From assembly GCA_964387845.1 (NCBI GenBank), contig CAYLXA010000006.1, forward strand, positions 128,001 to 192,000: a stretch of DNA of 64,000 nucleotides, in the 5' to 3' direction. Shown here one piece after another: positions 4,220-64,000 of this stretch (position 1 is its first letter; each line of letters opens with the position of its first letter). Origin of the DNA: an uncultured bacterium (GTDB lineage: Bacteria > Omnitrophota > Omnitrophia > Omnitrophales > Abzuiibacteriaceae). Under the pieces are notes generated by a model. It did not search any database. It saw only the letters and a program-made list of their open reading frames with translations, and had not been told where the DNA came from. Made by a program: the position numbers and the translations under genes.

Positions 4220-4546
4220 ATGTCGGACGATTTTCACAAACGGGTTAGCGAACAAGTAAAGAACAGCAAAATTCTCGTTTACATGAAGGGTAACAAGCAG
4301 CAGCCTATGTGCGGATTTTCGGCGCGCGTGGTTCAAATTCTCAATGATATTGGAAAGCCGTACGAAACTGTTGATGTGCTGTCAAACCTCGAAATCAGGA
4401 GCCGGATGGAAGAATTTTCAAAATGGCCTACGTTTCCGCAGGTTTTTATCGGCGGCGAATTTATCGGCGGCTGCGATATTGTGAGCGAAATGAGCGAAAG
4501 CGGGGAATTGGAACCTCTGATTAAGAAAGCGTTTGGAGAAGCATGA
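4220..4546 (+). CDS. grxD: monothiol glutaredoxin (Grx4 family)
   Basis: CGFS active-site motif (PMCGFSARV), and a glutathione-binding region WPTFPQVFIGGEFIGGCDI. Confidence 0.85.
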   Translation: MSDDFHKRVSEQVKNSKILVYMKGNKQQPMCGFSARVVQILNDIGKPYETVDVLSNLEIRSRMEEFSKWPTFPQVFIGGEFIGGCDIVSEMSESGELEPLIKKAFGEA

Positions 4547-5892
4547 ATTTAACCGAAGATCTCGAGCAGGCTATTGCGGGAAAGGACAAGCTCAAAGTTG
4601 AGAACTTGTTTTCTTCCTTGGCCCCGCTGGATGCGGCACAGGCGGTTGCTCAGCTGTCCAAGAAAAATCAAAGGCAGCTTTTTGCATTGCTGAATGCCAA
4701 GCAAGCGGCCGGCGTTGTGGAAGCGATGCCGAGCGTAGAACGCTCCACGATTATTAGAGGCATCTCGCAGGAAAAAGCTTCCGGCATTATGGATGCGATG
4801 GAGTCTGATGAGTGTGCCGATCTTCTGCTGGAGCTGCCGAAAGACAAGCGCGAGCAGCTGATTCAGGGCATGACGCCGACCGGCGCCCAAGAAGTCCGCG
4901 AACTTATCTCATATCCCGAAAATTCTGCCGGTAGTTTGATGGCGAAGGAATACATTGCCTTCGATAAATCCGCAAAAGTTTCGGAAGTTCTCAAATTTTT
5001 GCGGAATCACTCAGCCACATTTGATCAATACAGTGTCTCATACGTTTATGTGCTTAATCAAGACAAGCAACTGATCGGCGTTCTTCGGCTTCGGGATTTG
5101 ATTTTAAAAAGTTTGGACGCTTCAATCGAAGAGATTATGATCCGCAACCCGATCTCTATTTCGGTTAATGCGCCTGTCGATGAAGTGAAGGAATTGTTTG
5201 AGCAGCATCATTTCTTAGCACTACCGGTAGTTTCGGCCAATCAAAGGATGGCTGGCATCATCACAGCCGATGACGTCAGAAAAACCACGGAAAAATCCAA
5301 CATCGAAACCTTGCTTCGTTTTACTGGTATCGGCGGCGGGGAAGAGCTGCGCACAATGCCGCTTTTTGTCAGGATCCGTAATAGGCTGTCATGGCTCAGT
5401 CTGAATATCGGTCTCAATGTGATTTCGGCAAGCGTGATTGCTCTTTTCCAAGACACACTCCAGGAAGTAATTGTGATGGCGGTATTCTTGCCGATTATTT
5501 CCGATATGAGCGGATGTTCAGGCAGTCAGGCGATGGCAGTGAGTATTCGCGAGCTGACACTAGGCCGCATTTCATTCAAAGATTACCGCTCGATACTTGG
5601 CAAGGAAATTGTTATGGGTTTGATCAGCGGGCTTATTCTTGGGCTTGAGATCGGCCTTATCGCATTTTTGTGGAAAAAAATGGCCATACTAGGTGTTGTG
5701 GTAGCGCTGGCGCTTTGGGCCAATACCTTGATAGCGGTTGCGTTTGGCGGTATTCTTCCTGTCTTTCTACGAAAATTTAGATGGGATCCGGCAATCGCTT
5801 CCAGCCCAATTTTAACGACTGTCACGGATGCAAGCGGATTTTTTATTGCACTGAGCCTGACCAGTCTATTCCTCCCGTACTTTTCGCAGTAA
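4543..5892 (+). CDS. mgtE: magnesium transporter MgtE
   Basis: MgtE N-domain, tandem CBS-like region and a C-terminal five-TM MgtE channel domain with the conserved PIISDMSG-type segment. ATGA overlap with grxD. Confidence 0.85.
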   Translation: MNLTEDLEQAIAGKDKLKVENLFSSLAPLDAAQAVAQLSKKNQRQLFALLNAKQAAGVVEAMPSVERSTIIRGISQEKASGIMDAMESDECADLLLELPKDKREQLIQGMTPTGAQEVRELISYPENSAGSLMAKEYIAFDKSAKVSEVLKFLRNHSATFDQYSVSYVYVLNQDKQLIGVLRLRDLILKSLDASIEEIMIRNPISISVNAPVDEVKELFEQHHFLALPVVSANQRMAGIITADDVRKTTEKSNIETLLRFTGIGGGEELRTMPLFVRIRNRLSWLSLNIGLNVISASVIALFQDTLQEVIVMAVFLPIISDMSGCSGSQAMAVSIRELTLGRISFKDYRSILGKEIVMGLISGLILGLEIGLIAFLWKKMAILGVVVALALWANTLIAVAFGGILPVFLRKFRWDPAIASSPILTTVTDASGFFIALSLTSLFLPYFSQ

Positions 5893-8198: not shown

Positions 8199-9314
8199 AT
8201 GATTTTAACCCGCAAGGAATATGAAGACCGCGAATCCCAGTTTTTAGCTCCTTACGCCGTCAAAAGCGCCGAAAGCCGCGGCCGCGATTATTCCGAAAAA
8301 GAGCATGAATACCGCACTTGTTTTCAGCGTGACCGGGACCGTATCGTGCATTCGACCGCATTCCGGCGTCTTCAGTACAAAACCCAAGTCTTTGTAAATT
8401 CCGAAGGCGATCATTATAGAACTCGCCTGACTCATACCATCGAAACTGCGCAAATCGCACGCACCATCGGCCGGACGCTTGGCCTGAACGAAGATTTGAT
8501 TGAAGCAATTGCGCTCGCGCATGATTTGGGCCATGGGCCTTTCGGTCATGCCGGTGAGTGGGCGCTTGAGTCCCTGATGAAAAATCATGGCGGCTTTGAA
8601 CACAATCTGCAGGGAATCCGAATTGTCGAAGAGCTTGAAGAAGTATATTCAAACTTTCCTGGCCTTAATTTAACATCCGAAGTACGGGAGGGCATGAAGA
8701 AGCATCAGCAGAACATATCGTTATCATTTGAAGCGCGTGTGGTCGATTTGTCGGACGAGATTGCCTATGACAGTCATGATTTGGATGACGGAATCCGTTC
8801 AGGCTATCTTTCCGGATCGGATCTTGAGAAGCTCGCGATTTGGAAAAAAATTAGCCAATATTTGGGTACCAAATCTAACCTGAAGCAGGACCCGTCGTGG
8901 CGGCGCGCCGCGATCCGGCTTCTCATCAACCATCAGGTGAAGGATTTGCTTGAGACGACTAACCGAAATCTTAAAAAACTTAAGTCTGCTAAAAAATTAT
9001 CATCCGACATAATTATCCGCCTAGTTCATTTTTCTTTGCCGGTACGGAAATGGAAGAAGGAACTTAAAAGTTTTCTGCATGAAAATCTTTATAATCATTA
9101 CCGCGTTGTTCGCATGACCGATAAGGGGCAGCGGATTATCCGGAAATTGTTTCGGGCATATCTCGATAAGCCTAAGCAATTATCGCCCGGTATCCAACGG
9201 CGGATCGGAAAAGATTCTATCGAGCGGGTGATCTGTGATTACGTTGCCGGAATGACAGATCGGTTTGCACTGGATGAATATAAGCGGTTATTTGACCCGG
9301 ATGAACGGGTTTAA
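8199..9314 (+). CDS. dgt: dGTPase-like HD-domain phosphohydrolase (short dGTP triphosphohydrolase family)
   Basis: HD motif region RLTHTIETAQIARTI ... HDLGHGPFGH, and typical dGTPase-like N-terminus (SRGRDY, FQRDRDRIVHS..FRRLQYKTQVF). Confidence 0.8.
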   Translation: MILTRKEYEDRESQFLAPYAVKSAESRGRDYSEKEHEYRTCFQRDRDRIVHSTAFRRLQYKTQVFVNSEGDHYRTRLTHTIETAQIARTIGRTLGLNEDLIEAIALAHDLGHGPFGHAGEWALESLMKNHGGFEHNLQGIRIVEELEEVYSNFPGLNLTSEVREGMKKHQQNISLSFEARVVDLSDEIAYDSHDLDDGIRSGYLSGSDLEKLAIWKKISQYLGTKSNLKQDPSWRRAAIRLLINHQVKDLLETTNRNLKKLKSAKKLSSDIIIRLVHFSLPVRKWKKELKSFLHENLYNHYRVVRMTDKGQRIIRKLFRAYLDKPKQLSPGIQRRIGKDSIERVICDYVAGMTDRFALDEYKRLFDPDERV

Positions 9315-58282: not shown

Positions 58283-58949
58283 CGAGGCCCCATTGTTACA
58301 CCGATTAATTTCATGCGTGGTAATCATATCGGTCTTGATTTCAGGCTGCGTGCAATACAAGCGCCCGCCGATGATGATCAAAGTGCCGAGCTACTACGAC
58401 AATCAAATCTCGCTCAAAGATTTGACGCTGGTTGCTGATCCTTACATTGAACGCGCGAAGATCGAGCATTTATTTAACACCAATTTGCTTGAAAAAGGTT
58501 TTCTTGCGATCCAGCTGATTGCTTTCAATGACGGAGACGGCGTTTTTGACATGTCGCGTTCTGCAGTCGTTTTAGTGCGTGACGATGGGATTGTTTTCCC
58601 GCCGGTTCCGCCCAAACAGGTAAGCAAGAAGGTCTTGCGTCGCACATCGCTCCGGATGTTGGGGTGGGGATTCGCCGGACTTATCGTTTTGAGCATTCCG
58701 CTGTCGCTGGCTGCGGGCGTTGATTCTCGGCGCGCCAATCAGGGAATCCGTCGCACCCTTAAAGAGAATGTGCTGAGCTCTCACGAAATCGGCGCCCGTG
58801 AAGTTGTAAGTGGTTTTTACTTTTTCAAGATTGGAAAGTCGCATGGCCATAGCCAGGGCTCGCTTGCGCATCAGTACCGGTTCAAAATTGATCGATTGTT
58901 AGAGGTTGACTCCGGAGTAGAATACGAGTTTAATATCGGGATAAATTAA
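58266..58949 (+). CDS. hypothetical lipoprotein
   Basis: The N-terminus contains a lipobox-like LISGC after a hydrophobic stretch. No other recognisable motif. Start uncertain; the ATG overlaps the micro-lipoprotein ORF by 17 nt. Confidence 0.4.
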   Translation: MLVKNNEAPLLHRLISCVVIISVLISGCVQYKRPPMMIKVPSYYDNQISLKDLTLVADPYIERAKIEHLFNTNLLEKGFLAIQLIAFNDGDGVFDMSRSAVVLVRDDGIVFPPVPPKQVSKKVLRRTSLRMLGWGFAGLIVLSIPLSLAAGVDSRRANQGIRRTLKENVLSSHEIGAREVVSGFYFFKIGKSHGHSQGSLAHQYRFKIDRLLEVDSGVEYEFNIGIN

Positions 58950-58967
58950 GTTTTATTTTGCGAATAG

Positions 58968-59040
58968 GGGCCAGTAGCTCAGCTGGGAGAGCGCTACATT
59001 CGCATTGTAGAGGTCACGAGTTCAATCCTCGTCTGGTCCA
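58968..59040 (+). tRNA. tRNA-Ala (anticodon CGC)
   Basis: Hand-folded cloverleaf with acceptor GGGCCAG/CTGGTCC carrying the G3:U70 Ala identity pair, D-arm GCTC-AGCTGGGA-GAGC, anticodon stem CTACA/TGTAG with loop TTCGCAT, T-arm ACGAG-TTCAATC-CTCGT and discriminator A73. CCA is not encoded. Confidence 0.8.
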
Positions 59041-59048
59041 AATTTCTG

Positions 59049-59331
59049 AAGCCGGTAGCTCAGCCCTCACGCTACCATGAATATTCACGTATTATTTTAA
59101 TGAAGCGTGAGGGTAGTCCTGATTTCTAATGAATAAATGATTGTCATTTATTGATGAAAATCAGGGCAGCTGGGAGAGCGCTACATTCGTATTGTAGAGG
59201 TCAGGACTCATTTTCATTGAGGGATCCAGACGGTCAATAGGAAATGAGTTCAGCTCCTGAGCCTGATCAAGAATTCCTTAGTCGATTTTTACAGTAGCTC
59301 AGGGGCGGGGGTTCGGTCCCCCTTCGGTCCA
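59049..59331 (+). pseudogene. disrupted tRNA-derived mosaic locus (partial duplicate of tRNA-Ala with a Thr-like CGT anticodon)
   Basis: 59056-59063 (TAGCTCAG) plus 59170-59203 (CTGGGAGAGCGCTACATTCGTATTGTAGAGGTCA) reproduce positions 8-49 of the upstream tRNA-Ala, with one anticodon substitution C36>T. The two exon-like pieces are separated by a 106-nt insertion made of two perfect hairpins. A third GTAGCTCAG fragment and a T-arm-like GGGGG-TTCGGTC-CCCCT plus a TCGGTCCA end follow. No 3' strand complementary to the 5' acceptor is present. Confidence 0.45.
59064..59169. repeat. hairpin-rich 106-nt insertion within the tRNA-like D-loop (candidate miniature inverted-repeat element or structured RNA)
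   Basis: A 9-bp perfect stem CCCTCACGC...GCGTGAGGG enclosing a 32-nt AT-rich loop. An adjacent 8-bp stem CCTGATTT...AAATCAGG encloses a nested 9-bp stem AATAAATGA/TCATTTATT. The boundaries carry a CAG direct repeat. Confidence 0.4.
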
Positions 59332-59461
59332 AAGTTAGTTTTACACCTAAAATTAGCCTCGAATTAATCTCACCTAACGTCTTAAGCTATCAGATAAAAG
59401 AGCCGAAACATTATCCTACAAGCTTGGAGTGTCTTTAAGCGGTTAAACGTAGGATAAAATT

Positions 59462-63840: not shown

Positions 63841-63978
63841 TTTTTTGTTGTCCCATAACCCTAAATTAAACTGCTGAATTAACATATGGCGATTGGGAAA
63901 TTTCTGACTTGAAAAAGGCAAACCTGCCGAAAGGCGGGGACGCAAAACCGAAGTTCTAAATCTCATCAAGGAGAGACA

Positions 63979-64000
63979 TGAAGGCTGGGTTACCAAGCTG
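63979..64000 (+). CDS. 5' end of an unidentified CDS running off the window
   Basis: Strong RBS AAGGAGAG 6 nt upstream of ATG (MKAGLPS...). Too short to classify. Confidence 0.3.

Follow-up and report, generated by a model that had tools for sequence, protein, structure and literature searches.

A probable tRNA-Ala pseudogene interrupted by doublets of short palindromic modules in an uncultured Omnitrophota bacterium

In a 64,000-nucleotide (nt) stretch of the genome of an uncultured member of the Omnitrophota (contig CAYLXA010000006.1; the whole stretch is hereafter called the window), an intact tRNA-Ala(CGC) gene is followed, ahead of an exeA–secretin operon, by a mosaic of tRNA-derived segments and hairpins. 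We find that this mosaic (59049–59331) contains a second tRNA-Ala gene at full length, broken into three pieces by two palindromic inserts. The mosaic is probably the resident tRNA-Ala(CGC) gene of the locus, now a pseudogene, which was displaced by a different allele lying directly upstream and colonized by mini-palindromes that resemble miniature inverted-repeat transposable elements (MITEs) or repetitive extragenic palindromic (REP) sequences and duplicate 3 bp at (T)CAR motifs. The close homologues of the flanking genes all come from Omnitrophota metagenome-assembled genomes (MAGs), and a Logan assembly of sample SRR15237813 (L001) is base-for-base identical to the window from position 59016 onward; as this assembly is independent, the mosaic is not an assembly artefact.

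A second tRNA-Ala gene in three pieces

ARAGORN and Rfam each call a single tRNA at this locus, a tRNA-Ala(CGC) at 58968–59040 on the forward strand (RF00005, 63.9 bits), which is presumably functional. This gene, which we term the type 2 allele, has the acceptor stem GGGCCAG/CTGGTCC and the T-arm ACGAG-TTCAATC-CTCGT, and its CCA end is not encoded. The broken copy starts 8–10 nt further on and, in its native interrupted form, is detected by neither program. Its likeness to the intact gene is nevertheless clear: 59051–59064 corresponds to tRNA nt 3–16 (13/14 matching) and 59167–59206 to nt 13–52 (38/40), blastn aligns the two at 97% identity over 37 nt (E=5e-13), and GTAGCTCAG occurs three times in the window against 0.05 expected. 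This count and these matches show that the features recorded in the initial annotation (that is, an intact tRNA-Ala(CGC) and a split second copy with a CGT anticodon) are not due to chance, and the identical L001 assembly bears that description out.

The three pieces lie on the forward strand at 59049–59063, 59170–59204 and 59309–59331. The first (nt 1–15, AAGCCGG TA GCTC AG) ends in CAG, the left copy of a target duplication described below. The second (nt 16–50) comprises the remainder of the D-loop, the 3′ strand of the D-stem, the anticodon arm with CGT, the variable loop and two T-stem bases, and likewise ends in CAG. The third (nt 51–73, GGG-TTCGGTC-CCCCT-TCGGTCC-A) completes the T-arm and provides the 3′ acceptor strand with the discriminator base; with the two preceding bases it accounts for the T-arm-like GGGGG/TTCGGTC/CCCCT and the TCGGTCCA seen at 59307–59331. 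When the inserts (59064–59169 and 59205–59308) are taken out in silico, each along with one flanking CAG copy, the pieces join to exactly 73 nt, and ARAGORN folds the product into a cloverleaf that it labels ‘tRNA-Thr(cgt)’. The initial annotation had found no 3′ acceptor strand complementary to the 5′ strand; one exists, with GCCGG (59051–59055) pairing to TCGGT (59324–59328) through G3·U70, C4–G69, C5–G68, G6–C67 and G7·U66. The only acceptor mismatches in the rebuilt gene are A1×C72 and A2×C71, and the tRNA-predictor check proposed earlier therefore yields a complete cloverleaf with an imperfect acceptor stem. Given a complete 73-nt cloverleaf, the mosaic represents one whole second tRNA gene in three pieces rather than an assortment of fragments.

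The rebuilt gene is not a close duplicate of its intact neighbour. At nt 6 the copy has G where the intact gene has A, and this difference has its compensating partner at nt 67, as the copy comes from another allele. Its acceptor (xxGCCGG/TCGGTCC, in which x marks the altered first bases) and T-stem (AGGGG/CCCCT) match the allele found in relatives, which we term type 1, and not the intact gene of the window. The relative that is complete across the locus (ENA contig L085) has the same genes upstream (thiolase, 3HCDH, ECH, AMP-binding, hydrolase and lipoprotein), followed by a single tRNA-Ala(CGC) that abuts the stop codon of the lipoprotein gene and has the acceptor GGGCCGG/CCGGTCC and the T-stem AGGGG/CCCCT. 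In samples SRR18669184/5, two left-hand contigs (L089 and L090) continue past the lipoprotein gene through GGGCCGGTAGCTCAGCTGGGAGAGCGCTACATTCGCATTGTAGAGGTCAGGGGTTCGATCCCCC with no insert, and a right-hand contig (L082) begins with GGGGTTCGATCCCCCTTCGGTCCA and continues into exeA; joined, left and right contigs give a canonical tRNA-Ala(cgc) in ARAGORN, from which we infer a single uninterrupted type 1 gene in SRR18669184. Both insertion sites, in the D-loop and the variable loop, are empty in L085, L089 and L090. Relative to the intact type 1 gene reconstructed from L089, L090 and L082, the rebuilt copy differs at four positions. Its nt 1–2 are AA in place of GG (the uninterrupted counterpart in L089, L090 and L085 reads GGGCCGGTAGCTCAG), and G58 replaces A58 in the T-loop, where the homologue at L082:1–24 keeps the canonical TTCGATC.

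An orthologous mosaic is present in a sister species (L099, JGI contig Ga0268299_1000056, 439 kb), in which the ExeA protein is 95% identical and the remaining flanking proteins are 55–77% identical to those of the window. There, the type 2 tRNA (L099:3440–3512) is identical to that of the window at 73/73 positions and the mosaic follows it (L099:3530–3785), in the order GGTAGCTCGG, one module, CAG CTGGGAGAGCGCTACA, about 31 extra nt, TTCGCATTGTAGAGGTCAG, two further modules separated by CAG, and CAG GGGTTTGATCCCCCCTCGGTCCC. Contigs from three further samples (L100–L102) are identical to L099 from inside the 3′ part of the tRNA through the mosaic. As the mosaic is common to the window and L099, the arrangement is older than the split of the two species; the comparison of syntenic loci proposed earlier thus places it in more than one lineage, with a single tRNA-Ala in L085 and, probably, in SRR18669184. 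Since that split, the tRNA-derived pieces have come to differ at 8/71 aligned positions and the intact tRNA at 0/73. In the sister copy, roughly 31 extra nt interrupt the anticodon arm, more substitutions have accumulated and the spliced construct is not recognized as a tRNA by ARAGORN. The sister copy retains CGC at the orthologous anticodon, so the CGT of the window is a late mutation in that lineage. With full-length homology, a set of disabling lesions (insertions of 106 and 104 nt, A1×C72, A2×C71, G58 and a CGT anticodon on a G3:U70 body) and faster divergence than the functional copy, 59049–59331 has the properties of a tRNA pseudogene.

The surrounding region is otherwise conserved. The exeA–secretin operon keeps its position in the single-tRNA relatives and across Omnitrophota, and the mosaic is absent from all 80 GTDB genomes compared for synteny. 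Other Omnitrophota carry a different tRNA (Pro, Gln, Val+Asp or Val) or none ahead of exeA, and the gaps inspected in L018, L003 and L035 are ordinary or hold a small two-ORF insert (ORF, open reading frame). The window, L099 and L082/L089 are roughly equidistant from one another on both flanks; a recombination breakpoint or horizontal transfer at the tRNA was accordingly rejected, as flank identities are alike on both sides in the three related species.

Several further observations concern the intact gene and its assemblies. The Logan contigs over the locus (L001, L087, L088, L089, L090 and L100–L102) all terminate within tRNA-Ala sequence, and L089 runs on into a non-cognate 3′ acceptor strand (CGGCTCC); the tRNA repeats at this locus break or mis-join short-read assemblies. 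The 20 nt just 5′ of the intact tRNA (58936–58955, TCGGGATAAATTAAGTTTTA) are 75% identical to the 3′ end of the mosaic and its flank (59324–59343, TCGGTCCAAAGTTAGTTTTA), a likeness that may be a trace of the origin of the upstream copy or may be chance. In a giant-virus MAG, an intron-containing tRNA (L104:5052–5150, reverse strand), which ARAGORN does not call in bacterial mode, has a T-arm and 3′ end (GAGGTCACGAGTTCAATCCTCGTCTGGTCCA) identical to those of the intact tRNA-Ala. A viral source of the type 2 allele was rejected: the 3′-half pattern matched L104 only, the T-arm is a common one and the match was taken as chance. In L085, 3.3 kb of extra genes lie between the tRNA-Ala(CGC) and exeA (L085:6766–10000; small membrane ORFs, an NTP_transf_2/HepT toxin–antitoxin pair (MNT/HepT) and a 419-amino-acid ORF), and no tRNA fragment is seen beside exeA.

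Palindromic modules and their target duplications

Each insert in the window is a doublet of palindromic modules of about 50 nt. Insert 1 interrupts the D-loop and consists of 103 nt plus a 3-nt CAG repeat (59064–59169); the initial annotation correctly described it as two stem-loops, which fold far better than chance (z=−7.1). It is built from module hpA (59064–59113, 50 nt), with a perfect 10-bp foot CCCTCACGCT/AGCGTGAGGG (DNA fold z=−5.7), a TAG linker (59114–59116) whose place is taken by CAG in other doublets, module hpB (59117–59166, 50 nt; TCCTGATTT.../...AAATCAGGG; z=−5.5) and CAG (59167–59169), which sequence comparison identifies as the right copy of a 3-bp target duplication. Insert 2 (59205–59308) sits at the junction of variable loop and T-stem (nt 50/51) and again forms two adjacent hairpins (z=−3.6): module hpC (59205–59250, 46 nt; GACTCATTTTC.../...GGAAATGAGTT; z=−3.9), a CAG linker (59251–59253; the same CAG stands at L099:3707–3709), module hpD (59254–59305, 52 nt; delimited by its fold and by comparison with L099:3710–3759) and CGG (59306–59308). 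The last is a degenerate right copy of CAG, given that the alignment of window GGGGCGGGGGTTC with L099 GGGGCAGGGGTTT has CAG in L099. All of these lie on the forward strand, and the full 295-nt region folds far better than shuffled sequences (z=−7.0). Insert 2 resembles insert 1 better as its reverse complement (z=4.7) than directly (z=2.1), and by this comparison one insert appears to be inverted relative to the other.

The third D-arm fragment reported in the initial annotation proved to be part of a module. The motif CAGTAGCTCAG is indeed present at 59292–59302, but it belongs to the 3′ arm of hpD, where it pairs with GCTCCTGAGCCTG in the 5′ arm. Its counterpart in L099 (hpD′, L099:3710–3759) keeps these feet, with bases changed in compensating pairs, but its loop is unrelated and the D-arm motif is missing, so the 11-mer is lineage-specific; gene conversion from the neighbouring D-arm is a possible source.

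Scanning metagenomes with a 22-mer taken out of insert 1 revealed a second locus of the same kind (L091), on another contig from the same metagenome as L099. Here, an intact tRNA-Val(TAC) is followed by a divergent, interrupted Val(TAC) gene that lacks the 5′ acceptor strand, is broken at the same two tRNA positions as the Ala copy and is not recognized by ARAGORN when spliced. The mosaic reads TAGCTCAA, hpA-TAG-hpB, CAA CCGG...GGGGTCAG, hpA′-CAG-hpB′ and CAG GGTTCGAGCCCCTCAGCGTCCA, with homologues of hpA at L091:582–634 (z=10.8) and L091:727–779 (z=8.9) and of hpB at L091:637–686 (82% identical, z=10.6). It has no downstream operon on the same strand, and an exact match to the upstream protein was not found in the protein collection.

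Across the three mosaics, the bracketing triplets of insert 1 are CAG/TAG/CAG in the window, CGG/CAG in L099 (where site 1 holds one different module in place of the doublet) and CAA/TAG/CAA in L091; those of insert 2 are CAG/CAG/CGG in the window and CAG/CAG/CAG in both L099 and L091. The outer pair is exact in four of the six tRNA inserts (window insert 1, L099 insert 2 and both L091 inserts) and differs by one substitution in the other two (window insert 2 and L099 insert 1). At site 1 of L091 the triplet on both sides is CAA, matching the Val D-loop. The triplet follows the target tRNA (CAA versus CAG), as expected of a true 3-bp target duplication, which argues against an end encoded by the element.

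The modules form a family of which we recognize 12 members (46–53 nt). All pair from first base to last, and they are non-coding and far too short to encode a protein. Their stem feet vary by compensatory change (for example, CTGA/TCAG versus CTCA/TGAG, and CCTGAG/CTCAGG versus CCAGAG/CTCTGG), and their loops vary freely. The orthologue of hpC lies at L099:3660–3706 (z=10.2). L099 further carries a species-specific doublet in the 5′ untranslated region (UTR) of exeA (approximately L099:3868–3956), flanked by ACAG on both sides; the site, inside an otherwise conserved leader (CTTAAGCTATCAGATAAAA.AGCCGAAA), is empty in the window and in L082, and thus contrasts filled and empty states at a place that is not a tRNA gene. 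When the 50-nt hairpin, the terminal motifs and all 12 modules were used as queries, four modules were found in the window, all at the tRNA locus, together with related copies in L091 and the L099 UTR. A multi-copy MITE within the window was rejected, as no further copy exists in the 64 kb or in about 1 Mb of related loci.

Neither a GTAG-type REP head nor a Y1 transposase motif was found in the clade sequences examined. A viral origin of the inserts was also rejected (three insert-pattern scans of IMG/VR found no relative, and the seven matches from one of them are unrelated hairpins without tRNA context), and a scan with the Val pattern returned no match. In L018, a perfect palindrome (GTTCTCACTTTCATTAATGAAAGTGAGAAC, 5281–5304) after tRNA-Asp has 19/20 bases in common with the L099 hpC. 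The same contig has two small ORFs (4479–5200) between tRNA-Val and tRNA-Asp, which adjoin in L057, and this insert looks like a toxin–antitoxin pair. In L083, tRNA-Val(CAC) is followed by a hairpin-rich insert of about 195 nt (8899–9110). A 17-bp direct repeat of the 3′ end of the tRNA (GAGTCCTCTTGCGCCCA) bounds this insert, and the close relative L084 (1634 onward) lacks it; the insert resembles a typical att-type mini-element that carries no integrase.

Two features lie outside the mosaic. A 9-bp inverted repeat in the exeA leader (TTATCCTAC/GTAGGATAA, 59411–59457, forward strand) covers, with its 3′ arm, the AGGA ahead of the exeA start codon (59462); its counterpart in L082 has changed bases with similar pairing (TAACCTAAG/CTTAGGATA), and the sequence may form a translation-control hairpin. 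A c-di-GMP-I riboswitch (63907–63997, forward strand; Rfam, 76.4 bits) follows the TPR gene of the exeA–secretin cluster and precedes an FGE-sulfatase-like gene, and is conserved at L099:8435–8558 (71.7 bits).

Proposed course of events and rival explanations

The history we favour, reconstructed from comparison of the loci, would have begun in the common ancestor with L099, when a divergent functional type 2 allele arrived immediately upstream of the resident type 1 gene, clipping or altering its first bases and making it redundant. Modules of about 46–53 nt may then have inserted into the dead gene at two TCAG motifs, duplicating CAG each time, and further modules may have entered the duplicated CAG to give CAG-hairpin-CAG-hairpin-CAG. 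The pseudogene would since have drifted (GG>AA at nt 1–2, CGC>CGT and A58>G), with modules exchanged between lineages. The full-length homology, the duplications, the filled and empty sites, the module family and the quicker divergence of the mosaic than of the intact gene are observed directly; we infer the order of events, and likewise that the modules were transposed as DNA by some enzyme and that the mosaic has neither function nor expression. The position of the inserts needs no special cause. TCAG occurs exactly twice in a type 1 tRNA-Ala, once in the D-loop and once where the variable loop meets the T-stem, and both motifs are occupied; the window is about 95% coding (about 3.3 kb non-coding), and five of its six non-coding GSTCAG sites lie within this tRNA region. 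A scarce motif, combined with the harmlessness of insertion into a dead tRNA of a compact genome, can account for clustering at identical positions without tRNA-specific machinery. The suggestion of a MITE- or SINE-like (short interspersed nuclear element) insertion into a duplicated tRNA was essentially right. It needs amending in two respects: the interrupted copy is the ancestral resident and the intact one the divergent allele, and each insert, rather than being a single 106-nt element, is a doublet of ~50-nt modules with 3-bp duplications.

Several points weigh against this history. No transposase was found in the clade sequences examined, and a motif scan of them for IS200/RAYT (REP-associated tyrosine transposase) was negative; beyond the mosaics and the L099 UTR, the 64-kb window and about 1 Mb of related loci contain no module, which weakens the case for genome-wide mobility. 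The upkeep of hairpin stems by compensatory change could reflect selection, and an exact 11-mer (CAGTAGCTCAG) within hairpin D is too long for chance. The mosaic has been kept across a species-level split (flanking proteins 55–95% identical), a long persistence for a bacterial pseudogene that could hint at some function. The single-tRNA state of SRR18669184 is a join over a 15-nt overlap, and the 3′ strand of L089 is non-cognate. Finally, the history gives no reason for the divergent intact allele that immediately precedes the old gene at the Ala locus and again at the Val locus.

In a different explanation, which we regard as improbable, a structure- or sequence-specific recombinase would place modules site-specifically in conserved tRNA-gene motifs; the upstream allele would arrive with this mobile system or be selected together with it, leaving the host reliant on the tRNA so acquired. 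In a related form that we hold to be equally doubtful, the palindromes would be substrates of a system that recognizes the D-loop TCAR and the variable-loop TCAG and is coupled to arrival of the replacement allele (that is, a selfish cassette, acting independently at Ala and Val). The same two positions are struck in two different tRNAs, the old 5′ acceptor strand is clipped at both loci, with a divergent intact allele directly upstream, site 2 reads GGTCAC, not GGTCAG, in both intact alleles, site 1 is occupied differently in the window and in L099 (which implies repeated use of the site), and the rest of the 64 kb is free of modules. However, site 1 (GCTCAG/GTTCAG) is retained in the intact alleles, which are therefore not immune, and the flanks of these alleles have no motif in common between the Ala and Val loci. 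The L099 doublet after ACAG in the exeA 5′ UTR is at a non-tRNA site, no recombinase is seen nearby, and the few neutral GSTCAG sites in a ~95%-coding genome explain the clustering.

A functional RNA is very unlikely, be it an intron- or expansion-bearing tRNA or a tRNA-derived non-coding RNA or 5′ leader acting on the exeA–secretin operon. Removal of the inserts in silico does restore a cloverleaf in which G3:U70 is present and the anticodon arm is intact, the inserts occupy the two size-variable regions of a tRNA, the whole region folds well (z=−7.0 against shuffles), and stems are kept by compensation in a mosaic that has persisted since the split of the window and L099. Against this, the exons combine A1×C72, A2×C71 and G58 with a Thr anticodon on an Ala-identity body; L099 has the ~31-nt insertion in its anticodon arm, L091 lacks the 5′ acceptor strand, and neither is recognized as a tRNA; loops and even entire modules differ between orthologous loci; and the better match of insert 2 to the reverse complement of insert 1 (z=4.7 versus 2.1) fits DNA elements rather than RNA introns. 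No Rfam intron, ribozyme or other family matches, and the L091 mosaic lacks a same-strand operon downstream. A bulge-helix-bulge splicing endonuclease is not known from bacteria. A structured non-coding RNA, one of the possibilities raised at the outset, is thus contradicted by the 8/71 versus 0/73 divergence, by the cloverleaf lost in L099 and L091 and by the lack of an Rfam family. A functional intron-containing tRNA, already doubted in the initial annotation, is likewise contradicted by the disabling changes, the lineage-specific decay and the turnover of modules.

Equally remote is the proposal that the mosaic is an attachment-site scar at the border of a secretin island (that is, attL/attR remnants of a lost integrase-carrying island at tRNA-Ala, with the hairpins as residual element DNA). 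The space 3′ of the tRNA is variable, with 3.3 kb of extra genes including the MNT/HepT pair in L085, and the ~195-nt L083 insert after tRNA-Val(CAC), with its 17-bp tRNA 3′-end repeat and its absence in L084, looks like an example of such integration. Prokaryotic tRNA gene fragments moreover commonly stem from integrating elements (PMC9897764), a common origin that would suit the proposal. The repeat in the window, however, is a whole tRNA from nt 3 (nt 3–73) rather than a 3′ segment, and it comes from an allele other than that of the intact gene; the copies are 8–10 nt apart with no integrase or island present, the inserts lie within the tRNA copy with 3-bp duplications and not between att repeats, and all relatives have the downstream operon as a native part of the locus.

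The resident-pseudogene history therefore remains our preferred reading, and much of it is of a known kind: tRNA pseudogenes and MITE/REP-like repeats are both familiar, and what is new is limited to the undescribed family of elements and to the replacement copy that recurs upstream. Our literature search turned up no account of introns in the tRNAs of Omnitrophota, nor of MITEs in the D-loop of a bacterial tRNA gene. The locus offers a clean comparative case of the death of a bacterial tRNA gene, which is rarely documented, through replacement, colonization by palindromes and drift, and an alanine-identity body with a CGT anticodon is no reason to postulate a new or mistranslating tRNA. An Omnitrophota family of ~50-nt palindromes with 3-bp (T)CAR duplications is useful for repeat annotation in compact uncultured genomes, and may help to explain assembly breaks at these tRNAs. 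If the recurrence of an intact allele with a colonized old copy were systematic, it would point to a mechanism of tRNA-gene turnover.

Comparison with known systems

Bacterial tRNA genes are known to carry group I introns in the anticodon loop, and archaeal tRNAs may carry several introns. The interrupted copy resembles intron-containing and split tRNAs in being broken at non-anticodon positions and in regaining a cloverleaf without its inserts. It differs in lacking a group I core or ribozyme, in having exons with disabling mutations and lineage-specific decay, and in that one insert is apparently inverted. A group I tRNA intron, which would sit in the anticodon loop, measure about 200 nt or more and have a conserved catalytic core, was rejected: each insert is ~100 nt long, insert 1 interrupts the D-loop and insert 2 the nt 50/51 junction, and no Intron_gpI or ribozyme match appears (E≤10; E≤1). 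As regards archaeal-type introns, predicted folds show each insert as a self-contained pair of hairpins and no helix between exon and intron.

Williams-type att sites in tRNA genes are another known system close to this one. As with the tRNA fragments that integrating elements leave behind (PMC9897764), a dead tRNA-derived sequence here stands beside a functional tRNA of the same isoacceptor type, and island-type variation follows tRNAs in relatives (L085 and L083); unlike them, the sequence is full-length (nt 1–73), represents a different allele, is internally interrupted and has no island or integrase between the copies. Integron attC arrays provide a parallel in their tandem imperfect hairpin modules of 50–140 nt, with a constant triplet between them and reuse of the site, but the sequence examined here has no RYYYAAC/GTTRRRY core, cassettes, ORFs, IntI gene or attI.

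IS200/IS605 elements enter DNA 3′ of a tetra- or pentanucleotide, which is not duplicated, and carry their hairpins in a subterminal position. The palindrome-associated transposable elements (PATEs) derived from them share with the present inserts a size of ~100 nt, a build of two hairpins and a place beside a short fixed motif. In the present inserts, by contrast, the triplet at the flank occurs as a duplication that changes with the target (CAA versus CAG), and the hairpins extend right to the ends. An IS200/IS605-type PATE or a REP/RAYT system was rejected accordingly, as the right-hand triplet is CAG in window insert 1 and CAA in L091 insert 1, with no REP head and no Y1 motif.

The nearest likeness is to MITE/REP-like repeats, for which the REP/BIME/REPIN sequences of gamma-proteobacteria, the NIME/Correia elements of Neisseria and the Rickettsia palindromic elements serve as reference classes. 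The present modules are set apart from these by a length of only ~50 nt, by a 3-bp duplication at (T)CAR, by residence almost only within dead tRNA genes at a very low copy number in the DNA examined, and by having no linked RAYT/IS200-type or other transposase and no GTAG-type REP signature. They agree with them in being short, non-coding and palindromic, in lying outside coding sequence as single units, doublets or mosaics, in their short flanking duplications, in their presence or absence at orthologous sites and in stems that are conserved as loops drift. As small palindromic non-coding sequences with target-site duplications and with filled and empty sites in relatives, the modules are MITE-like.

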